Shown here: piece after piece, positions 1,681 to 26,268 of the stretch
How positions within the stretch are numbered: position 1 is the stretch's first letter
How the letters are laid out: each line of letters starts with the position of its first letter
IMG/VR virus record: IMGVR_UViG_3300044712_001937
Location: 203,681-267,680 of that record
Source: a virus
Strand: one strand, 5' to 3'
Length of the DNA stretch: 64,000 nucleotides
Position numbers and translations under genes: made by a program
The notes under the pieces: generated by a model
Database searches by the model: none
Seen by the model: the letters and a program-made list of their open reading frames with translations, nothing else
What the model was told of the DNA's origin: nothing

Positions 1681-1972
1681 AAATATAATTATGGAAAGTG
1701 TAGGTCAATTTATTTATGGTAACGAAGTTTATTTACCTTTAGATTCTGTAAAAATTGGTGATTTATTCTTCACAGATTTTGAAGATAAAATTGCTGTTTA
1801 TAAAAAAACAAAAAAAGGTAAGAAATTAATAAAAATTGTAGAAAATTATGGTGAGTTATATAAAATTGAAAACATTAATATTGAACCACCAGTATCAAAT
1901 TTCATATTGTTAAACCCTTAAATTTATGTATATTTGTAACAATACATAAATTTATTCGTATATTACATTGCG

Positions 1973-2030
1973 ATTTAGCTCAGTGGTAGAGCCGAGGTGT
2001 CAGGAGTTCGATTCTCTTAGTCGCAACTAA
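1973..2030 (+). tRNA. Truncated tRNA-like element with acceptor stem, D-arm and T-arm (TTCGATT loop) but no anticodon arm
   Basis: Acceptor tgcgatt/agtcgca (7 bp, one G-U), D-stem gctc/gagc with loop agtggta, T-stem aggag/ctctt with loop ttcgatt. Only 9 nt separate the D-arm and T-arm, so it cannot decode. Confidence 0.35.
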
Positions 2031-3931: not shown

Positions 3932-4720
3932 ATGAGCAAACTTAAGGATTTAATTTCAAAATATGGTAAGGATAAAATTAATACTTTCACCAAATATCCT
4001 TCCATATTAACACTTCATAAATTAGGTGATAAAGGTAGGTTAACTCCTGAATTAACTACAGATGTTAGTGGTGAAACTATGTATGGTACTGAAAAGATTG
4101 ATGGTACTAATACAAGAATCGTTTGTTATGGGTTTGATTATTTATTTGGTTCAAGAGAGAATATTCTATACTATTTTGAAGATTTATATTTTGACCCAGC
4201 ACAAGGAATTGTTGATGGTTTAAAATCTTTGGAGATTGAGAAAATTATCCCCGTAACTGATGATTTTACTGTCATATACGGTGAATTTTATGGTGGAAAG
4301 GTTAGTTCAAATTCAAAGTGGTATGGTCAGGATAAAATAGGTTTCAGGGTATTTGATGTTGCTGTTTATAGCGAAGAAGATTTATTAATATTAGATAAAA
4401 CATTGCCGGAGATATCGAGATGGAGAGAAACCGAAACTGAGACTGGTATTATTTATGGTCAGAATTTTATCACCAGAGATGAGATTATTAATTTAATCCC
4501 AGAGTTTGAGTTAGTACCTTTAATCACTACTAATTTTGGACAATTAGGCGATTATTCACATCAAAATATTTTACAATATCTAAAAACCTATATACCTATA
4601 ACTAATGTAGCTTTATCTGAAACAGCTATAAAGAAAACAGAAGGTTTAGTTTTACGTACTGATGATAGGTCAAAGATTGTGAAAATCAGGTTTGAAGATT
4701 ACGAAAGAACTTTAAGATAA
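3932..4720 (+). CDS. Rnl2-family RNA ligase-like nucleotidyltransferase
   Basis: 'GTEKIDGTNTRI' matches ligase motif I (compare T4 Rnl2 'EKIHGTN'). 'TEGLVLRTDD' fits motif IV (EGxV) and 'KIVKIRFEDY' fits motif V. The start was moved to ATG 3932, just after the stop of the preceding ORF. Confidence 0.55.
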   Translation: MSKLKDLISKYGKDKINTFTKYPSILTLHKLGDKGRLTPELTTDVSGETMYGTEKIDGTNTRIVCYGFDYLFGSRENILYYFEDLYFDPAQGIVDGLKSLEIEKIIPVTDDFTVIYGEFYGGKVSSNSKWYGQDKIGFRVFDVAVYSEEDLLILDKTLPEISRWRETETETGIIYGQNFITRDEIINLIPEFELVPLITTNFGQLGDYSHQNILQYLKTYIPITNVALSETAIKKTEGLVLRTDDRSKIVKIRFEDYERTLR

Positions 4721-6522: not shown

Positions 6523-7603
6523 AATCATGTAACATAATACATTTTATTTCGTATATAATTAAAAATAAATAATATGAGTAAATACGATATTAATACACAT
6601 GGCGATTTTAAGAAATACTATGATAGTAAATATAAACGAAATTATTGGGTGCTTGGATATTTCGGTGGTGGTGCTGTCAATATAGTAGATGCATATGAAC
6701 TTGCAAAACAATTCGCAGATGCAATTAAAGTTCCATTGGAGACTGTACAAATCGATGAAGTGTTAAAGTCTCGCAGATATAAACATTTCAAGTTTTTATA
6801 TTCAACTGTTGATGAACAAAAACCTGAAAAGGATAGTAACATAATAGAAAATGTATATCAATGGTTAACTGATTAAAATTAATAAATTTATGGAAGTAAC
6901 TGAATATAAACTCAAGCTTAAAATTCTTAAAGAAGAATATGATACGAAATTAAATGAATTGCATACTGAATTTGCAATGTCTAATAATAACGTACATAAT
7001 GGTGATGTATTCACAGACCATATTGGAAGTGTTAAAGTTGACCGTATTGAAGTAACTCTTGCAAGTTCAGATAATATTCCATCGTGCGTGTATTATGGTT
7101 TTGAGGTGAAGAAAGATGGAACACCTAAGAAAAGACCTTATTATCGCTTGGCGTACCAAATTAATGAAGTAAAAAAATAATAAAATGCCTAAGAAAATTA
7201 ATCATATTACTAATACTGATGAATGTTGTGCACACTGTGGAATACCATTTAAATATTACTGGTATGATAAGGAAGAACGAAATGGAATTAGTGAAATTAA
7301 ATGGAATGATAAATATCATAAACATTGTAGCGAGATTGTAACAGGTAGTGAGTGTAAAAGTTTACAAAAGTTAAACGAAGAAAGAAAAATAATCAAATAA
7401 AATAACAAAATGCCTGATATTTTAAAATCATTTAAGGTACTCTGTAAGATTGATAAAAACGATGGGAATGGTATTAAAGACGATTATCCTGTATTCACTA
7501 AAGCTAATGATGATGTAGATGCTGAAAAAAATGTGAAATATTATTGGGTAATGGAAAAACCGGAAGTTTCTTATTATGGTGTAACTAAAATAATTGAAAT
7601 GTA

Positions 7604-8913: not shown

Positions 8914-11900
8914 AATTTTTATTACAAACATTTTATATTTTTTTAGTCTTATTTATGATATTATATATTGGAATATCAGTTTATTGTGGTAACTGGAATC
9001 CTGTTTGTTGGAACATTAATATTAGAACATCATTTTTAGGATATAGTTTACTTACTTTATTTATTGCATTTGCAATTAGATTTTTCACATATTTAATTAA
9101 TGAATATGAATAATAAAAAATTAACTCTCGAAGAAGCCAAAGCATTATCCATTAAGAAATGGGAATTCATTGTTGACCATAATGGAGATGAGGATGAAGA
9201 TTTAATGTTTAAAGATTTTCCTGAATTACAAAATCTTAAAAATGATTGTGCTTTATGTGAATTATTTTACGATACCAAGGATGTAGGATTATATTGTTGT
9301 GCTGGTTGTCCTATTCGTCCTAATATTGATGATTATGATGATACTCAAAATACTGGTTGTTATCAAAAAATTCATCCTTATTATATTTGGAGTAGCATCA
9401 GCACTCAAGAAAATGCTCAAAAAGTTTTGGATTTAATTAAAAACTTTAAATATGAATAGATTAATCTTATTTATTTTTATTTTATTCTTAGGAATATCAG
9501 TTTATAGCCAGAATAATTATATAACTGGTTGTTTTTATATCAATAATAACGGTACATATTTTATGGGTACTAATCAAACTCAATATGCATTACCAATAAA
9601 AATTACAGCAGTTAATGAAACTAAAAATCAACAAAGATTTTGGACAATTAATCTTCAACCATATAGTAGTTTTACAATAAATAAAGATAATGGATGGATA
9701 TGGGAAGCTTATGAGAAATTATATATTACCTTTAATAATGGTCAATCTATATATTGGGTTTTTTCGCCTAAAAATACATCATTTAAAGGTTTAATTCCAA
9801 AAAAATCTTGTCAAATTGCTGGTTGTAATTGCATGAAATATATGAGCGAAGCTGGTTCTGATTATCCATATGGAACGTGGTGTAAGAAATGTAATCATTC
9901 TATAAATTATCATACTAAATAAATTTAATTAAAAACTTTAAATATGAATAGATTATTTTGGTTATTATATGTAATTGGTATTATAATTTTAATATCATGT
10001 GCTGGAAAAGGTACAACTACTGAAAAATTAAGTGGTGATGAAGCTAATCTTCCAGAGGAATTAAAAGGTTTAAAAGTATATAAAGTATCAACTGGTAATG
10101 GAAAATATGTTAATGTAGCTATTTTAAATAGTACAGTTAACTCTTTTACATATCCTGTTGGTAAACATACTGAAAGTACGATTATGGTTAAATCTAAAGA
10201 TGATAATAGTAATTTTATTAAATATTCATCTGGGTTTGATATATATCTTAATTTTATTGATGGCTCAGTTAGAACTATTCCTAATAATTTAAATGTAATT
10301 AGAGAATTTGATATTATTCAGGAAGGTGATACTTGTAAATTCAGGGAATTTGATATTAAAACTAAATCAATGTTATAGTATGAAAAACATAATTTCAATT
10401 TGGAATAAACCGATAAGTCCCGTAATTTCATTTATCATGACATTTATTATGGGATTACTAATTTCTAATTTTGCATTTAAATATAGTTTTTGGATATTTT
10501 TAATTGCAATTCCTTATCTTTATCAATTAATATTTTTAGTTGTTTTAAAACATAAGGTAGCTGAATTACTTAGTGCAATCGGAAAACTCATGGAAATGAT
10601 TAGAAACGCTACAGTTCCTAATAAAGAAGAAAATGTGGACTAACGAATATAATCCAAAAATTTCAACATGGTATATAACCAAATGTAATGGTGAACGTAA
10701 TCCTATGTATTGGAACAATCCACGAAAATTTTGGTCTGATTTCTCAGGGAAAACATATAAGCCAGAAGAAGTGATTTGGCTTGACGATTTTAAAATACAA
10801 TAAAATGAGTGTACAATTAGACGAACATGCATATCAGAGATTAATAGATGAAAACATCATCGCTCTTGAAAAATATATGCCAGAACATTCTTTAGAGAAA
10901 AAACATACAATTGAAGTTCTTAAATGGAGTGTTAATGAAATTTATCATAACACAAAATTAGATGTTTCAAAAATGGAGGCTAATGATGTTAGCAAAATAG
11001 TTAAACTATATATAGAATTCTTACGTACCTCCGGAGAAACTAAACTACAAAATCAAATTGATTTCGTTGAATATTTAAATAATAATTTAATTAAAACTCC
11101 AATATTCATTTCCATTATCAATTCATTAAAGGAGTTACAATCAATTAAAAATAGTAGAAATTATCCTGACTGTCCACTTCATACATCTACTTGTCATTGG
11201 GATAGTTTTTGCCCTAAAAATGTGAAATGTTTACTTAAAGAATAATTTATGCTTATATATAAACCAACAACTACAATTCGTGATTTAAACACATCACATA
11301 CTGCTGTTCAGGGTGAAGATTGCATAGTTGAAGCTATTGAAATAAACGGAAAACATTCATATGCTGTCGTTTTAAATAGTCAGAATAATAAATTAAATAT
11401 TCCACTCGATATTCTTGATAAATATTTTACTATATTTGAAGTTAAATGTTAAACTATGGAAACTCCAATAACAAAAGCAATTAAAGAGTTTGAAAGATTA
11501 AAAGGTGATAGTAAAACCTTAAAAGATATTATCTATCTTGATGGTGTACTGGCAATTCTGGATTCATTTAAAATTTATGAGGAAAAATTTTTAAATGATT
11601 TAGATGAAACTTTTTTAGCTGAAATAAGTTTAGATTATGATAGTACAGAATATAAACTTGTTAAAGCTAAAAACGAAACTGAAGCAAAAAAGAAAGTTAG
11701 TCAACTATATGGTTCAGTAAGGATTAATATATTAACCACAATTAAATAATATAACTATGAGTGATTCAAATAATGTAAAAATTGAAGTTAGATTAATTTC
11801 AGATAAAGAATTAACTGAAAAATATGGTGGATACTTACGCTATAATATAGGTGATTGTTTTAAAACTAATGATAATCATTATTATATGCAAAGAAGTGAA

Positions 11901-13736: not shown

Positions 13737-15185
13737 ATGAGTGATATTATCTTAACAAGAAAAATAAAACTTGGTGTTTATGTTCCAGAAATTATTGTTG
13801 ATGAAAAAGAACGTAAAACATATAAAGATTTTGTTTGGAGTTTATTACGGAATATTAATCGACAGAATTTTGAATTTCATAATCTATTAGTAAAAAAACT
13901 AATTGAAATTGATGCTATAATTTCCTCTCGATTAAGTGTAGATGATAAATTTATCAAATTAAAAAATAATTATTTTAAAGATAAAAAAGTATCAAAACCT
14001 TATTTTGATTATATCAAACAAACACAAAAAGAATATATTGAATCGTTAAGTTATAAAAATATTAATTCTTATATTTATAATTATTTAGTTCAATATATTA
14101 AATCATTATCTGATGAACAACAATTAATTAATTCATATTCTTATTGCGCAATATCTAAAAATGTTTGTGATAAATATAATGATGATTTATTTGATGTAAA
14201 TAGAGGTATAAAAAACGTTGCCTTTTATAAAAATACTCAACCAATTCCTATTAATATAAAAGCACCTTCATATATTGATGAAAAAGGAGTTAAATCAAAA
14301 TCATTGGGAAAGTTTTGGTTTAATAAACATGAAGATAAATATGTCTTTAAATTTAAATCTTCAAAAAAACATGATATTGAATTATTACTTTTATTTGGTA
14401 AAGATAGAAGTAATAATAGAATTATGATTGATAGAATCTATAATAATGATTCTAATTATAAAATTTGTGATTCTGATATTCAAATTATAGATAATGAAAT
14501 ATTTTTATTATTAACAATAAAACAATTTAATATTGAAAATAAAATTCTCGATAAAAATAAGGTATTAGGAGTTGATTTAGGTATTAAATGTGCTGCATAT
14601 ATTGCTACAAATAATTCATTAGAAAGACAACAAATAGGTTCTAAAGAATTTGTACTATTAAAAACTAAATTGCAAATTGAAAAAGATAAAAGATTACTTC
14701 AACGAAATTCAATATTTTCAAAATCAGGGCATGGAAGAACAAGAAAACTTCAAAAATTAAATGATTTTAAAGAATATGAAAAGAATTTTAGAAATACTTT
14801 TAACCATCAAATATCTTCTGAAATTATAAGTCATGCAATTAAATGGAATTGTGGTCAAATTAATGTAGAAGATTTATCAGCAATACCTTTAGAAGAAAAA
14901 AATAAAAGAATTCTTCGTAATTGGGCATATTTTGATTTATTAAATAAAATTGAATATAAAGCTAAAAAAAATGGAATAAACTTTTTAAAAGTTAATCCAG
15001 CATATACATCCCAAATATGTAATGTTTGTGGGAAAAAAGGTGAACGAATAAAACAAGATACTTTTATTTGTATTAATCAGGATTGTAAATTTCACGATAA
15101 ACCAATTAATGCAGATTATAATGCAGCAATTAATATTGCAAAAAATATTAACATAAAAAAAGAAGAAATTGTATCAATATCCTAA
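13737..15185 (+). CDS. TnpB/Cas12f-like RNA-guided nuclease candidate (split RuvC plus zinc finger), directly upstream of a CRISPR array
   Basis: RuvC-I 'KVLGVDLGIK' (D280). 'SGHGRTRKLQK'. RuvC-II 'INVEDLS' (E378). TnpB hallmark 'NPAYTSQICNVCG'. Zinc finger CxxC...CxxxC ('CNVCG...CINQDC'). RuvC-III 'NADYNAAINIA' (D460). The N-terminal region is about 270 aa, longer than canonical TnpB and in the Cas12f size range. There is no adjacent tnpA. Confidence 0.8.
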   Translation: MSDIILTRKIKLGVYVPEIIVDEKERKTYKDFVWSLLRNINRQNFEFHNLLVKKLIEIDAIISSRLSVDDKFIKLKNNYFKDKKVSKPYFDYIKQTQKEYIESLSYKNINSYIYNYLVQYIKSLSDEQQLINSYSYCAISKNVCDKYNDDLFDVNRGIKNVAFYKNTQPIPINIKAPSYIDEKGVKSKSLGKFWFNKHEDKYVFKFKSSKKHDIELLLLFGKDRSNNRIMIDRIYNNDSNYKICDSDIQIIDNEIFLLLTIKQFNIENKILDKNKVLGVDLGIKCAAYIATNNSLERQQIGSKEFVLLKTKLQIEKDKRLLQRNSIFSKSGHGRTRKLQKLNDFKEYEKNFRNTFNHQISSEIISHAIKWNCGQINVEDLSAIPLEEKNKRILRNWAYFDLLNKIEYKAKKNGINFLKVNPAYTSQICNVCGKKGERIKQDTFICINQDCKFHDKPINADYNAAINIAKNINIKKEEIVSIS

Positions 15186-15406
15186 AATTATATTATATTT
15201 GTATCATCATTTTGAATTTAAGTTCTTTGATATAATTGATATTATTGTTTTTAGTTAAACAATAATTATGGCTGGTTGTACAGCCAAAAGTGAGGTCGAA
15301 ACCTAAAAAATGAATAATTTTGAGCAAAGTTTCATAGAACACTCACTAAATATCTTTCATTATTTTTAAATAAAATATTAATTTACAACAAATTACATAA
15401 AGGTAT
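15186..15406 (+). other. Non-coding region between the nuclease gene and repeat 1: candidate leader, tracrRNA or omega-RNA scaffold
   Basis: Contains the hairpin ggctggttgtacagcc (15270-15285). The 40 nt before repeat 1 hold repeat-like fragments ('atttacaac', 'aaatt..aaaggta'). Confidence 0.3.
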
Positions 15407-15771
15407 GTTGTAAACAACCACAAATTGAAAGGTACTTACAACTATTTGGACATAGAAGTACTGATTATATCAGTTGTAAACAACCACAAATTGAAAGGTA
15501 CTTACAACTCATTACTTACCTGCCTTTCTTTTATCTAAGTTGTAAACAACCACAAATTGAAAGGTACTTACAACGTGCTGGTAGTCCTCAGATTCGTTTA
15601 ATTGTTGTAAACAACCACAAATTGAAAGGTACTTACAACTATTCAATATACAAGAAATGTATTAAAAGAGTTGTAAACAACCACAAATTGAAAGGTACTT
15701 ACAACCTATGGTTAGGATACTGTTATTTTTTTCATGTTGTAAACAACCACAAATTGAAAGGTACTTACAAC
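15407..15771 (+). CRISPR. CRISPR array with 6 identical 36-nt repeats (GTTGTAAACAACCACAAATTGAAAGGTACTTACAAC) and 5 unique spacers (30, 30, 29, 30, 30 nt)
   Basis: Repeats lie at 15407, 15473, 15539, 15604, 15670 and 15736. Each repeat has 7-bp inverted termini GTTGTAA/TTACAAC. The spacers share no similarity with each other. Confidence 0.95.
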
Positions 15772-15806
15772 AGTAGGAGAAGTTCGGGTTCGATTCCCAC
15801 TACTCT
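15772..15806 (+). other. tRNA-like minihelix fragment immediately after the last repeat (GGTTCGATTCC T-loop-like core flanked by agtag/ctact)
   Basis: 'agtaggagaagttcgggttcgattcccactactct' contains a TTCGATT loop and a 5-bp closing stem. It is too short for a tRNA. Confidence 0.25.
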
Positions 15807-15820
15807 ATTAAAATTAATTT

Positions 15821-15916
15821 GGTGCTGTTTGTAATGTTGGCTATACATTTTGTCCATGAAGCGTAAAGTGAAGTATGGCAAGCTCAACGTAGGTTCAATT
15901 CCTACCAGCACCACCA
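15821..15916 (+). tRNA. tRNA-like element (96 nt, encoded CCA) with non-canonical anticodon and variable region
   Basis: Perfect 7-bp acceptor stem ggtgctg/cagcacc, discriminator A plus CCA. Perfect T-arm gtagg-ttcaatt-cctac. D-stem tgta/taca with a GG loop. I could not fold a canonical anticodon arm in the 41 nt between the D-arm and T-arm. Confidence 0.35.
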
Positions 15917-22731: not shown

Positions 22732-25017
22732 ATGATTATCAATATAGATAAATTTTCAGACCAAGAAACAGTTTCAACATGTGAAGAAAATGATATTGTA
22801 TTATCAAAGGATTCTCAAAGTATGTTTTTTTCATTATTCACAAAAAACATATACTCAAATCCAATTGGTAGTATAGTTCGTGAAATAACTTCAAATTGTT
22901 TTGATAGTCATATTGAAGCTGGTTGTAATATGCCTGTTTTAATTAAAAAAAGTATAGAAAAAGATACTAATACAAATTACATATCGTTTATCGATTATGG
23001 TGTTGGAATGTCACCTGAAAGAATAGATAAAGTATTTAGAGTGATGTTTTCATCAACAAAACGCTCAGATAACGCACAAATAGGGGGCTTCGGACTCGGT
23101 TCGAAAAGTTGCCTTGCTTACAAGCGTAGCACAGGTTTTGGCGAAGGTGAATATGACAATTCGTATTATATTATTACAGTATATGATAAGATTAAATACA
23201 TATACAATATATATGAAGGTCAAAAATGCCCAAAAATATCCTTACTTCATAGTGAACCAACCGAAGATGGTAATGGTACAGAAGTTAAAATTCCTGTATT
23301 AGAAAAAGATTTACGTACATTCGAATATGAAATGATACGTCAATTATATTATTTCGAAAATATTATTTTTGAAGGTTTCGACAGCACTAAACTTACAAAC
23401 GATTATCAAATTATCAGGGGAAAATCATTCCTATTCAGAGGTAATGAATACAAAGATTCAATCCATGTTTGTTTAGGTAGGGTTGCATATCCTTTAGATT
23501 ATAATACTTTAGGTTTAAACGAATCAGATTATCGTTTACCTGTAGCAATTAAATTAAATGTTGGTGATATAAATGTTGTTGCCAGTCGTGAAGGTTTAGA
23601 TTATTCTGAAAAAACTATTAAGGTAGTTAAAGCTAAACTGGAAGAAGTTAAAAGTGAAATTATTGGTTTGATTTCCAAACAATATGAGAACATTGTTACA
23701 TTGGAAGATTATTTTAAAGTTAAATCTAAGTTTGGATTTCTTTATTTCTCAAACGGTTTATCTATTAATGTAGGTAATGTTATTAGTGTTAAAGATATTA
23801 ACTATAAAAACTTTCGATATAATTCACTTAAATCAATTCCAAAAGATACTGAATTATTTAAGCTGTTTTTCAATGTTGAAGCTTATGGTAAAAAATTAAA
23901 TAAGAATGTACACCGTAGAACCATATTTTTTGATGGAAGTTTCGATGAAATTCTAAGAAAAAATTTCGTTTACTATATAGATACTCCAATGGAACGTAAA
24001 AGAATTAAACGTGCTTATATGAAGTCTCTGCATGAAACATATTTTGTAATTAGGAAAAATAATTTCATTCATTCAACTAATAGAGAAACAATTTGTGATT
24101 TGTTCAATGTTAATTTTAACAGTTTTTACAATAAATCAACTGATGGTCAATGTACGGAACTTACTGATTTTTCAAAAACATTGTTAATGTTAAGAGATGA
24201 GTTGTTTGAAATTGTTACAAAATATCGTCAGGATTATAATGAAGTTAATGTTCCGGAAAATTTCATTCTTGAAAAGAAAAGAAATATTATCGATACTAAG
24301 ATACTTAGAGAAACTAAAATTCAAGTTAAATTCTTTGGTGTCAGTGGTAAAGATAAAGTTAAATTATCAGCATTGTTCGATTTAAACATTCCAATTTTTT
24401 ATGGTTCACAGGATGATGAAAATAAATTAAACAATGCCAGATATATTCATACTACATTGTTCGGTGGTGGGTCAATGATTTCATATTATGAAGAATATGG
24501 TAATAAAATTAACTTTAATTCAGATAAAAAGGGTATATTGTTCATAATGTTAAGTAAGGGTAATTTAAAATATATGCAATATTGCAAAAAAGCTTACCAT
24601 ATAGATAATTATTACTGGAAAATGCTTCATCGTAAAGCTGACATGGTTTATGATTACTTCAACAGTTTTGAATTTATTCAATCATATCAAAACTTATCAT
24701 CAATGTACAAGTCTAATAAGTTTGATATAATTAATAAAGATTGGGGACGTAAAATTAAAAAAGTTAATGAATATTATCAAAAAATAATTTCAAATAAAAA
24801 TAAAAATATTGGTGATATTCGTCAATACTTAACTCCTTATTTTAATTTATCTAATTTAAATCAAAGTACTGAAAATAAAAAAATAAGCAGTATACTTGAT
24901 GATATTTATAAATTAAAAACTGCTAATGAAAAATCTATTAGGTATATTAATATGCCAAATGATTTTTCAACAGATGAAGTATTAATTGATATATTAAAAA
25001 AAGTTATGATATTTTAA
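22732..25017 (+). CDS. Hsp90/HtpG-like GHKL-family ATPase (761 aa)
   Basis: N-box 'NIYSNPIGSIVREITSNCFDS' (compare Hsp90 'LYSNKEIFLRELISNASDA'). G1 'IDYGVGMS'. G2 'IGGFGLGSKS'. The rest of the protein is not recognisable to me. Confidence 0.5.
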   Translation: MIINIDKFSDQETVSTCEENDIVLSKDSQSMFFSLFTKNIYSNPIGSIVREITSNCFDSHIEAGCNMPVLIKKSIEKDTNTNYISFIDYGVGMSPERIDKVFRVMFSSTKRSDNAQIGGFGLGSKSCLAYKRSTGFGEGEYDNSYYIITVYDKIKYIYNIYEGQKCPKISLLHSEPTEDGNGTEVKIPVLEKDLRTFEYEMIRQLYYFENIIFEGFDSTKLTNDYQIIRGKSFLFRGNEYKDSIHVCLGRVAYPLDYNTLGLNESDYRLPVAIKLNVGDINVVASREGLDYSEKTIKVVKAKLEEVKSEIIGLISKQYENIVTLEDYFKVKSKFGFLYFSNGLSINVGNVISVKDINYKNFRYNSLKSIPKDTELFKLFFNVEAYGKKLNKNVHRRTIFFDGSFDEILRKNFVYYIDTPMERKRIKRAYMKSLHETYFVIRKNNFIHSTNRETICDLFNVNFNSFYNKSTDGQCTELTDFSKTLLMLRDELFEIVTKYRQDYNEVNVPENFILEKKRNIIDTKILRETKIQVKFFGVSGKDKVKLSALFDLNIPIFYGSQDDENKLNNARYIHTTLFGGGSMISYYEEYGNKINFNSDKKGILFIMLSKGNLKYMQYCKKAYHIDNYYWKMLHRKADMVYDYFNSFEFIQSYQNLSSMYKSNKFDIINKDWGRKIKKVNEYYQKIISNKNKNIGDIRQYLTPYFNLSNLNQSTENKKISSILDDIYKLKTANEKSIRYINMPNDFSTDEVLIDILKKVMIF

Positions 25018-25077: not shown

Positions 25078-26268
25078 ATGGCAAATAAAATAAGTATTCA
25101 CGTAGTTAAAACAGGTAATACTGTCCACATTAGTCTTGGTGGCAAGCTTATTGATAAAAACTGCGGTAATCCTAAAGAAGCTGATGAGTTATTTAAAATA
25201 GTTCTTGCTGCGAAGGAAAATCCAAGTGAAGATAACTTACGCAAAATTCGTGCATATGTAAATGAAAAATTGCGTGTAGCATATTTAACAGGATTAGAAC
25301 ATGACCCAGATACTGGTGAAGTATTCTTGGCAGGTTTCAATACCCCAATTCCTCAAACATTGGTTGATATTATCAGGGAGTATCACGAAAATAAATATCC
25401 GTTAACACCAATTTTTAACTTCTGGAAGTTATTAATGATTAATCCGGATAAGCGTGTACGTGAAAGTTTATTCAAATTTATTACTGCTCACGATTTCTCA
25501 TTAACAGATATGGGATATATGATTGTTTATAAAGCAGTATATTTAAAAGACCAAAAACCTGTTCGTGATACTACTTATGAAGATTTCATAAGCACTCAAT
25601 ATCTTCACGTAAAGAATAACTGGAAATGTAGTCCTAATAAATATGTGGTTTATAAAAACCTTGCAGATTTTACTTTTGCAATTACAAAATATGAAACTGC
25701 TAAGACTTGGGACGAAAAAGAAAAAAATATCGAAATTCTTGGTAAACTTGGCGATATCTATTCAGCCATTGTTGTTGAAGATAATAAACCGCTTCAATAC
25801 ACTGATATGTATTCCCAAACCATGACCATTGAACTTGGTGTACCAGCGAAGAAGGAAAGAAAAGATTGTGATGCTAATCCAGATAAGAATTGCTCTAATG
25901 GATTACATTGCGGTGCAACAAACTATGTAAGCAATTATGCCAAGAAGACAAGTCATATTCTTGTATGTTTTGTCAATCCAATGAATGTTATAGCAGTACC
26001 ACATTATAACCATTCAAAAATGAGGGTTTCAGAATATTTTCCATTCGCTTTAGCTGAATATGATTTTGATAAGAAAAAGATTTCAATTATTGAAGAAAAA
26101 TATTTCGAAAATGATTATAAAGCTTATGAAGTTATAGAACTCGAAAAATTGGTTACTAAAGTGAAATCAGAAGAAAAACCAATTGAAAAAGCACAAAATG
26201 CCGAAGATGAAGTACGTCCAATGTCTGAATTATTAAAAATTATTGAGGGAAGAATGATTGATTTATAA
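25078..26268 (+). CDS. Hypothetical protein (396 aa), preceded by the promoter motif and followed by a strong terminator
   Basis: It has the least AT-biased codon usage in the area. A TCGTATATTTACG motif lies upstream at 25037-25048 and a hairpin at 26289-26323 follows. Confidence 0.45.
   Translation: MANKISIHVVKTGNTVHISLGGKLIDKNCGNPKEADELFKIVLAAKENPSEDNLRKIRAYVNEKLRVAYLTGLEHDPDTGEVFLAGFNTPIPQTLVDIIREYHENKYPLTPIFNFWKLLMINPDKRVRESLFKFITAHDFSLTDMGYMIVYKAVYLKDQKPVRDTTYEDFISTQYLHVKNNWKCSPNKYVVYKNLADFTFAITKYETAKTWDEKEKNIEILGKLGDIYSAIVVEDNKPLQYTDMYSQTMTIELGVPAKKERKDCDANPDKNCSNGLHCGATNYVSNYAKKTSHILVCFVNPMNVIAVPHYNHSKMRVSEYFPFALAEYDFDKKKISIIEEKYFENDYKAYEVIELEKLVTKVKSEEKPIEKAQNAEDEVRPMSELLKIIEGRMIDL

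Follow-up and report, generated by a model that had tools for sequence, protein, structure and literature searches.

The window analysed here is a stretch of 64,000 nt from a virus (IMG/VR record IMGVR_UViG_3300044712_001937, positions 203,681 to 267,680 of that record), in which a gene for a miniature nuclease is followed by a small CRISPR array. The gene is an open reading frame (ORF) with an ATG start that encodes 482 residues, and its GC content is 21%, that of the window being 26%. After a gap of 221 bp (15186–15406) come six identical copies of the 36-nt repeat GTTGTAAACAACCACAAATTGAAAGGTACTTACAAC, separated by five spacers, all different, of 30, 30, 29, 30 and 30 nt. The number of repeat matches expected in a shuffled window is 0.00, and no additional copy with up to 3 mismatches is found elsewhere in the 64 kb. 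A first-pass annotation of this DNA had described the six repeats at the same distance from the gene, with unique spacers of 29–30 nt, just as they are found. The gap is predicted to encode a trans-activating CRISPR RNA (tracrRNA), and the three parts together probably form a self-contained CRISPR-Cas system of type V-F1 (Cas12f1, formerly V-U3) carried by a large, AT-rich phage; the locus is real and probably functional. This assessment draws on how the locus is built, on the family in which sequence and fold place the protein, on a predicted tracrRNA that is conserved and covaries, on the phage context, and on the lack of adaptation genes in the DNA in view.

Features of the Cas12f1 locus and other elements of the window (positions are those of the window)
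Feature	Position	Strand	Basis or remark
cas12f1-type effector gene	13737..15185	+	profiles, sequence matches to solved structures, AlphaFold2/Foldseek fold
promoter-like TATATTTG (TAnnTTTG)	15194..15201	+	upstream of tracrRNA
predicted tracrRNA, ~146 nt	15222..15367	+	covariation, covariance model, layout like validated tracrRNAs
tracrRNA pseudoknot	CTTTG 15225-15229 with CAAAG 15325-15329	+
tracrRNA stem 1	~15241-15269	+
tracrRNA hairpin	GGCTG 15270-15274 with CAGCC 15281-15285	+
tracrRNA hairpin loop GTTGTA	15275..15280	+	complements TACAAC, the last 6 nt of each repeat
tracrRNA stem	AGTGAG 15289-15294 with CTCACT 15342-15347	+
tracrRNA inner stem	GAAA 15298-15301 with TTTC 15330-15333	+
tracrRNA anti-repeat TATCTTTCA	15351..15359	+	pairs TGAAAGGTA in the repeat (15426-15434 in repeat 1)
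shortened, degenerate repeat copy joined to repeat 1 (leader)	15381..15406	+	sequence reading only
CRISPR array	15407..15771	+	six identical repeats and five spacers
repeats	15407-15442, 15473-15508, 15539-15574, 15604-15639, 15670-15705, 15736-15771	+
spacers	15443-15472, 15509-15538, 15575-15603, 15640-15669, 15706-15735	+
tRNA-3'-half-like sequence	15772..15808	+	abuts last repeat; contains GGTTCGATTCCC
tRNA-like element, 96 nt	15821-15916	+	Rfam, ARAGORN
GDSL-lipase-domain protein, 478 aa	16115-17551	-	directly after array
Rfam tRNA match, 58 nt	1969-2026	+	43.2 bits, without ARAGORN call
rIIA	22732-25014
rIIB	25078-26265

The ORF encodes a Cas12f1 (formerly V-U3) effector, that is, a TnpB-derived nuclease with a RuvC domain and a zinc ribbon. 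A check against hidden Markov models returned the PADLOC profile Cas12u3 (E=3.4e-82; residues 5–476 against profile positions 2–394 of 398) and the PADLOC profile Cas12f (PDLC01699; E=1e-78), likewise over the full length, which bears out the compact, Cas12f-like type V effector proposed in the first-pass annotation; the Pfam family Cas12f1-like_TNB also matches (E=5.9e-18). The Cas12f2 branch was considered and rejected: the NCBIfam Cas12f2 model is not passed (84.8 bits, with 450 needed), and the effector is therefore not of this branch. The closest chain in the PDB by sequence is Al3Cas12f from Alistipes (9nzr/9nzo; E=6e-48), and further matches are to AsCas12f (~1e-39), CnCas12f1 (9e-39), RhCas12f, SpCas12f1 and OsCas12f (~1e-35 each) and Un1Cas12f1 (E=7e-19). 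Every one of the top matches is a CRISPR-associated Cas12f1 enzyme, and ISDra2 TnpB gave no match in this search.

The fold comparison is in agreement. An AlphaFold2 model computed from 66 homologues (predicted local distance difference test score, pLDDT, 85.9; predicted template-modelling score, pTM, 0.70) superposes in Foldseek over its full length on Al3Cas12f, with template-modelling (TM) scores of 0.73/0.78, 30% identity and E=4e-28. The TM scores are 0.68/0.76 with AsCas12f and 0.61 with Un1Cas12f1, while ISDra2 TnpB, at 0.52/0.66, ranks below the Cas12f enzymes. The predicted N-terminal part consists of a WED strand, long REC helices (residues ~23–155) and a WED beta-sheet (~170–263); the C-terminal part holds the split RuvC domain (D280, E378 and D460) and the TNB zinc ribbon. 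In the model, the long N-terminal helices are reminiscent of the extended REC helices that have been described as specific to the Al3Cas12f clade (PMC13186708).

The three RuvC residues align with the RuvC motifs of Al3Cas12f and, like the zinc-ribbon cysteines C428, C431, C445 and C450, are kept across 12 close and 66 wider homologues. The catalytic triad named in the first-pass annotation is thus upheld by conservation. Of the motif given there as CxxC...CxxxC, the four cysteines stand, but the spacing of the second pair requires correction to CxxxxC (C445-INQD-C450). A nuclease-dead derivative, such as TldR or ‘dCas14’, was also considered for the window protein and rejected, D280, E378 and D460 all being intact.

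The strongest evidence that protein and array act together is the conserved tracrRNA predicted in the gap between them. The first-pass annotation had pointed to this region, but had missed the RNA it encodes. The predicted transcript starts 37 nt past the stop codon of the effector and ends in a T-run (15363-15367). Among relatives the gap is conserved in blocks which, from 5' to 3', are GTTCTTTGA, a variable stem, a hairpin of the form GGnnG-GTTGYR-CnnCC, AAAGTGAGG, the inner stem, CACTCACTAAAT, a few bases that complement the repeat, and a T-run. Nine sequences, each consisting of the gap region joined to its cognate repeat, were aligned (alignment A2), and the structure, which was written by the analyst, comprises 30 pairs in six helices, including two interactions of the pseudoknot type. 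Pairing in A2 reaches 94.1%, compared with 31–53% in controls with the partners displaced by one to three columns; 11 pairs show compensatory, two-sided changes, and none of 500 shuffles reaches the observed values. Several of the helices contain G-U pairs, which are compatible with the plus strand only.

Two of these interactions connect the RNA to the repeat. The hairpin loop and the end of the repeat covary across loci as GTTGTA/TACAAC, GTTGTG/CACAAC and GTTGCA/TGCAAC, and when loops and repeat ends were swapped between loci, 14 of 20000 permutations equalled the cognate pairing. The 3' tail of the RNA (TAYC...) pairs with ...GGTA within the repeat across the family; the mean duplex energy is -8.67 kcal/mol for cognate and -5.73 kcal/mol for non-cognate combinations, with 9 of 20000 permutations as good. 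For the window itself, RNAduplex gives 9 bp and -8.9 kcal/mol between TATCTTTCA and TGAAAGGTA.

A covariance model (R1), built solely from ten close relatives, finds a single match in the window, at 15222-15362, and its 121.6 bits are the highest score of all loci. Over 68 sources (532 kb, both strands) R1 has 39 matches, 39/39 of them on the gene strand and most of them between gene and array; they include distant viral loci as well as loci in metagenome-assembled genomes (MAGs) of Alistipes, Rikenellaceae and Tidjanibacter. In three more distant viral loci, L020 and L021 (2217-2359 in each) and L022 (1908-2044), the match lies upstream of the nuclease gene, by ~650–1000 nt. A TAnnTTTG motif occurs 8–45 nt upstream of the 5' block of the tracrRNA in 7 of 11 family loci, against a background of 3%. 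TAnnTTTG is the -7 promoter consensus of Bacteroidota.

The layout is also that of guide RNAs which have been validated. The guide RNA of Al3Cas12f has a hairpin GGGCGC-GUUGGA-GCGCC, the loop of which complements the repeat end UCCAAC, and continues with UUUGAGG ... ACACUCAAAAAAU and the anti-repeat UUCACUUGA, which pairs with UCAAGUGAA of the repeat (PMC13186708, supplement). The window RNA can be aligned with it block by block, the elements are in the same order and the positions of the anti-repeats agree; the layout is like that of the validated MG119-3 tracrRNA as well. Because of the covariation, the R1 matches, the Al3Cas12f-like layout and the upstream motif, 15222-~15367 is taken, on comparative evidence, to encode a tracrRNA.

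In Rfam, no family reaches its gathering score over the locus. RF02956 (‘DUF2693 RNA’) was considered as the identity of the tracrRNA and rejected: its match at 15222-15302 (+) scores 22.8 bits, with 81.3 needed (E=0.052), and nine relatives were negative at E<=0.01. What RF02956 has in common with the 5' half of the tracrRNA is the GUUCUUUGA.AUA.UUGAUA block, together with the hairpin and AAGUGA, and the RF02956 motif might be a related guide-RNA scaffold.

The array is read with each repeat 5' of its spacer (GTTG...ACAAC), on the basis of the tracrRNA pairing and of the homologous arrays in ~60 related loci. On its gene-proximal side, the leader copy listed in the table (AACAAC..AAA..GGTAT) resembles the interior of the repeat, and equivalent AACAACCACAAA blocks are found in the leaders of L002, L007, L052 and L053. 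It could be supposed that the array is a phage mini-array which borrows a Cas effector of the host, the adjacent nuclease being no partner of it. Some phage arrays do share the repeats of their hosts and may use host Cas proteins (Al-Shayeb 2020, PMC7162821), and no adaptation genes were found here, as such an arrangement would allow. However, the representative genomes of 185,579 species contain no exact copy of a 23-nt core of the repeat, which is evidence against a borrowed host effector; moreover, the repeat covaries with the tracrRNA of its own locus, and the repeat type follows the nuclease. Such borrowing is accordingly held to be highly improbable.

Beyond the last repeat, and starting on the very next base, lies the tRNA-3'-half-like sequence of the table (AGTAGGAGAAGTTCGGGTTCGATTCCCACTACTCTA), which would serve a CRISPR RNA (crRNA) as a sixth, fixed guide. 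Its predicted fold is not significant (z=-0.89) and the Rfam match covers only 13 nt, below threshold; it may be mere flanking DNA, and its place in the system is uncertain. If it does belong to the system, it could, being joined to the last repeat, act as a hard-wired guide or as a signal for processing. The 96-nt element slightly further downstream is also tRNA-like, with a 7-bp acceptor stem, a T-arm, an encoded CCA and an irregular interior. It scores 29.5 bits with the Rfam tRNA model (gathering score 29) and is called by ARAGORN as tRNA-His with anticodon ATG; the tmRNA model fits the acceptor and T-arm parts only (31.3 bits, with 47 needed).

The same cassette of gene, tracrRNA and array is seen in ~60 related loci on viral contigs and in Bacteroidales MAGs. 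The close relatives, defined as homologues 48–71% identical to the window protein (P0002–P0012) and traced to their contigs, nearly all have 36-nt repeats ending ...GGTAnnnACAAC, ~230–270 nt downstream of the gene. The number of repeats per locus is one (L001, L004, L012), two (L002, L003, L005, L006, L048), four (L007), seven (L009) or at least nine (L049). In IMG/VR, 33 viral loci hold relatives at 29–60% identity, most with arrays of period 65/66 just downstream. The representative-genome collection yielded 48 loci at 31–37% identity, almost all of them in Bacteroidales MAGs from animal guts (Alistipes, Prevotella/Segatella, Rikenellaceae, Bacteroidaceae and Tidjanibacter), and in ~35 of these 48 the array is at the same offset, with repeats ending ATCCAAC. 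The MAG relatives include the source lineages of Al3Cas12f and of uCas-116/117/122 (bioRxiv 10.1101/2023.02.03.527072). Across the family the repeat type (36 nt, GTTG...ACAAC) tracks the nuclease.

The surroundings of the cassette are not conserved. None of the 16 ORFs flanking it in the window is common to the loci of close relatives, and one flanking ORF has a single weak match in one distant viral locus; the conserved unit is therefore the gene, the tracrRNA and the array. The neighbours of the MAG relatives are varied housekeeping genes, among which no Cas1, Cas2, Cas4 or transposase family recurs, and none of the ~60 related cassettes contains cas1, cas2, cas4 or tnpA.

Signs of decay are seen in some relatives. 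The family member P0005, at L053 (296-1726), carries D280N, an asparagine in place of the RuvC-I aspartate, and the repeats downstream of it (1900-2080) are truncated and degenerate; this system may be decaying or repurposed. Together with the loci with a single repeat (L001, L004 and L012) and the lack of spacer targets described below, this raises the question of whether the window locus, too, is a decaying, non-functional remnant. Against this, its six repeats are identical, its ORF is intact with all catalytic and zinc-binding residues, and its tracrRNA is the top-scoring of all loci against the family model, so that decay is considered very unlikely here. In L012, a single-repeat homologue which retains the catalytic residues has a sigma-70-family gene directly upstream (4087-4602), an arrangement reminiscent of the TnpB/Cas12f derivatives with associated sigma factors in Altae-Tran 2023.

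Other relatives show that the arrays are not static. Six contigs from different samples (L001-L006, ~6650-6765) encode one identical effector, P0007, and differ in their gene-side spacers: L001 and L004 have none, and three different ones are found in L002, in L003, and in L005 and L006 together. The spacer content therefore does change, with no adaptation gene in view. L001, with one repeat at the gene, has a second array of ~14 repeats of the same type ~4 kb downstream of it (10360-11190), in which two neighbouring spacers are identical. It is possible, though we think it unlikely, that the close relatives represent a Cas12f1 lineage confined to phages, in which arrays acquire and shed spacers without an adaptation gene of their own. 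If so, the phages would either hijack an unrelated host Cas1-Cas2 in trans or load guides by recombination, and the forms with one repeat would be natural stages between a CRISPR array and an RNA with a fixed guide, like that of TnpB.

The DNA of the window is that of a phage, as the first-pass annotation had also concluded: apart from rIIA and rIIB, it encodes endonuclease VII, homing endonucleases of the LAGLIDADG and HNH families, an RNA ligase, MazG and NADAR, and its 127 small ORFs give ~90% coding density under the standard code. Recoding of stop codons, which was considered on account of the AT-rich DNA and the large phage, was rejected in view of this density. Homologues of rIIA are present in 2848 phage records, all at <25% identity, and the window has no DNA match to deposited phages. 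An identical effector protein is on record on a contig of 364,702 bp, and the carrier is a large AT-rich phage, probably with a host among the Bacteroidota. Other genes of the window resemble defence genes; these are two proteins with GmrSD_N domains and ORFs matching the PADLOC models NsnA (two ORFs), PD-T4-2_A (two ORFs) and PDC-M42C, and the PADLOC AAA-ATPase models AriA, GajA and PtuA also match ORFs in the window.

Among the 25 best Pfam and the 25 best PADLOC families listed for the 127 window ORFs there is no Cas1, Cas2, Cas4 or Y1 transposase, and the same holds for the ten ORFs flanking the locus when these are scanned singly at E<=0.01. The first-pass annotation was right to report that cas1, cas2, cas4 and tnpA are missing; the lack of an adaptation module is no oddity, being a defining trait of V-U3/Cas12f1. 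Effectors of this group have 422–497 aa, the tracrRNA is encoded in the interval from gene to array, and the 5' protospacer-adjacent motifs (PAMs) are T- or C-rich, V-U3 being the older name for part of the present Cas12f1 (Karvelis 2020, PMC7229846). The lack is usual in huge phages, too, where nearly all CRISPR systems are without cas1, cas2 and cas4 (Al-Shayeb 2020, PMC7162821).

The transposase results bear on a further explanation, namely that the protein is an ordinary transposon-type TnpB, an OMEGA nuclease of IS200/IS605 elements, and that the repeats are an unrelated neighbouring array. The names given to the protein are of this kind: the pipeline labels are TnpB/transposase, the JGI name is IS605 OrfB family transposase, the broad NCBIfam model guided_TnpB is passed (148.7 bits, cut-off 100) and Pfam OrfB_IS605 matches weakly. 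However, tnpA is absent from the families listed for the window and is not found beside any relative, and a TNB domain occurs in only one window ORF among the matches listed. A mobile TnpB element is equally at odds with a non-coding RNA that lies apart from the gene and shows covariation with the repeat, and with a cassette that is kept across ~60 loci with unrelated flanks; and the structures and profiles of Cas12f1 match the protein far better than those of TnpB. Identification as a transposon-borne TnpB is thus largely refuted already, and we regard it as scarcely credible.

The search for spacer targets, proposed in the first-pass annotation, gave little. BLAST of all 35 family spacers against GenBank phages and PLSDB plasmids returned chance matches over spacer junctions only, and the spacers have no match in the fetched family loci. 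One protospacer was recovered: the 31-nt spacer of L005 and L006 matches at 31/31 positions in a 1164-bp metagenome contig (L102:712-742) without flanking repeats. It is intergenic, just after a terminator-like hairpin (AAAACCGGACC...GGTCCGGTTTT), and its 5' flank is ...GGTTTT. In its side and its composition the flank is what a 5' PAM of type V would look like, and the PAMs of Al3Cas12f are T-rich in the same way. The contig itself has no phage match and no informative ORFs, and no longer viral contig was found to contain the PAM-protospacer junction.

These results leave room for a working Cas12f with a role other than defence, such as the cutting or repression of host genes in the course of takeover, regulation of the phage's own genome, or, by way of the terminal guide, an attack on tRNA-like sequences of the host. 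Phage spacers that target host genes have been described, as has a ‘dCas14’ repressor (Al-Shayeb 2020, PMC7162821). The lack of phage or plasmid matches for the window spacers in the collections searched, the tRNA-like sequence after the last repeat and the intergenic, terminator-adjacent position of the sole known protospacer could be read in the same direction. On the other hand, an intact catalytic triad does not point to plain repression; the window itself contains no match to any of the spacers, even with 8 mismatches allowed; and spacers of V-F systems have been reported to match phages and plasmids (Altae-Tran 2023). A non-defence role is, on balance, unlikely.

Several points weigh against the assignment of the locus as a self-contained V-F1 system, in addition to the transposase labels and the guided_TnpB match noted above. 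The effector is ~30% identical to the nearest characterised enzyme. The five spacers of the window have no match in GenBank phages or PLSDB plasmids by BLAST; exact 25-mers of S1, S2, S3 and S5, and of two spacers from sister loci, have no match in IMG/VR, and S3 has none in JGI metagenome contigs. The PAM is deduced from one protospacer on a 1.2-kb contig, for a relative that is 61% identical. Finally, the DNA inspected amounts to 64 kb of a genome of ~365 kb, so that the absence of cas genes or of further arrays holds for the window only.

Among characterised systems, the locus is most readily compared with the clade of Al3Cas12f/Cas12f-MG119 and uCas-116/117/122 (Alistipes, Tidjanibacter). 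The effectors are of the same size class (433–488 aa), with long REC helices in the model; the order of the cassette is likewise gene, tracrRNA and 36-nt repeats, with no adaptation module. In both, the tracrRNA has a hairpin loop that complements the final 6 nt of the repeat, a stem of the AGTGAG/CTCACT type and a 3' anti-repeat; a T-rich PAM is tentatively suggested by the one protospacer. Al3Cas12f, whose PAM is T-rich, is an obligate dimer (PMC13186708). The identity to it is ~30%, and to the MAG relatives 31–37%; the repeat ends in TACAAC in the window and in TCCAAC in Al3Cas12f. Furthermore, the window locus is on a large and much more AT-rich phage genome and is known from sequence alone, whereas the Al3Cas12f clade lies amid chromosomal housekeeping genes and has been characterised biochemically and structurally.

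The V-U3/Cas12f1 systems of Firmicutes (AsCas12f1, SpCas12f1, CnCas12f1, OsCas12f1 and RhCas12f1; Karvelis 2020) share the miniature effector (415–497 aa), the tri-split RuvC domain with a zinc ribbon, the tracrRNA between gene and array and the lack of cas1, cas2 and cas4. Foldseek TM scores between these effectors and the window protein are 0.62–0.68 when normalised by the query and 0.64–0.76 by the target, at ~23–27% identity. They differ in that they come from Clostridia and Bacilli, not from phage, and in the sequences of their guide RNAs. The V-F/V-U variants of huge phages, compared here by description only, are likewise phage-encoded class 2 type V systems with conserved catalytic residues, no Cas1, Cas2 or Cas4 and a compact array, the reported median of six repeats being the number found in the window (Al-Shayeb 2020, PMC7162821). 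Assignment to Cas12j (CasPhi) or Cas-lambda, effectors of ~700–800 aa which process their own crRNA and do so with no tracrRNA, was tried and rejected: the effector has 482 aa, a tracrRNA is predicted, and the match to Cas12j19 (8xcc) is weak (E=7e-7). CasPhi, the best-studied huge-phage effector, has ~750 aa and is not known to need a tracrRNA.

Un1Cas12f1 (Cas14a1) is also a dimeric, miniature Cas12f with a tracrRNA, which likewise has a hairpin loop complementing the end of the repeat. It is, however, far more distant (E=7e-19, TM ~0.6) and archaeal, and its locus has cas1, cas2 and cas4. With TnpB of ISDra2 and other IS200/IS605 elements the effector shares a common ancestor, the core of RuvC domain and zinc ribbon, and a pseudoknotted guide RNA scaffold. 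TnpB, of ~400 aa, uses a single omega RNA that overlaps the 3' end of its gene and carries one fixed guide at the end of the transposon; in the window, by contrast, the RNA is split into a predicted tracrRNA and crRNA, the former pairing in trans with the repeats of an array of five spacers. Around the window locus, no Y1 transposase is present among the families listed and the flanks are unrelated, hairpins of insertion sequence (IS) ends not having been searched for specifically. Cas12p (the ‘Cas12 hacker’) is another phage-associated miniature type V effector with a tracrRNA, but is larger (500–700 aa), recognises a GTN PAM and is activated by thioredoxin, and its similarity to the window protein is weak (E=1e-13, TM 0.46; bioRxiv 10.1101/2025.01.20.633832).

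By analogy with the characterised relatives, from which we infer dimerisation, the PAM, cleavage and RNA processing, the system would work as follows. The 482-aa Cas12f would be expressed together with the phage genes upstream, and the ~146-nt tracrRNA would be transcribed from a promoter of its own in the gap between gene and array, with the array transcribed in the same direction. The repeat would pair with the tracrRNA twice, through TGAAAGGTA with the 3' anti-repeat and through its TACAAC end with the hairpin loop, so that the tracrRNA and each processed repeat-spacer RNA would form one guide, bound by a Cas12f dimer. The dimer would recognise a T-rich 5' PAM and form an R-loop over ~20 nt of the spacer, and a single RuvC site would then cut both strands of the double-stranded DNA. 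New spacers would be provided by an adaptation module of the host acting in trans, or by recombination. By analogy with the CRISPR systems of other phages, its targets would be competing phages, other mobile elements or genes of the host; the use against competing mobile elements put forward in the first-pass annotation is a proposal of this kind, the five window spacers having no target in the collections searched.

In the size and key residues of the effector, its profile matches and fold, the adjacent array, the predicted tracrRNA and the lack of an adaptation module in the DNA in view, the locus agrees with V-F1, and the features examined of a transposon-borne TnpB, a nuclease-dead derivative and Cas12j are absent; the locus is therefore regarded as a divergent, phage-borne member of a known group. 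Systems like it had been described before, both from huge phages and from Bacteroidales of the gut, and the novelty implied by the first-pass annotation was overstated. V-F/V-U systems that are carried by phages and lack adaptation genes were the subject of a report in 2020 (PMC7162821), and the bacterial sister clade (uCas, Al3Cas12f) was characterised biochemically and structurally in 2023 and 2026 (bioRxiv 10.1101/2023.02.03.527072; PMC13186708). The interest of the locus is practical and ecological rather than conceptual, and the general picture of type V evolution and of CRISPR in phages is unchanged. In practical terms, the candidates for compact genome editors are joined by a well-defined Cas12f of 482 aa that appears to be intact and whose repeat is known and tracrRNA predicted; since the nearest characterised enzyme is only ~30% identical, its PAM and activity profile may differ. 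The Bacteroidales clade of Cas12f1 now in use for editing, that of uCas and Al3Cas12f, has sister lineages carried by phages, and a three-part cassette of gene, tracrRNA and mini-array circulates among unrelated phage genomes, a spread which bears on competition between phages and on the dissemination of V-F systems.

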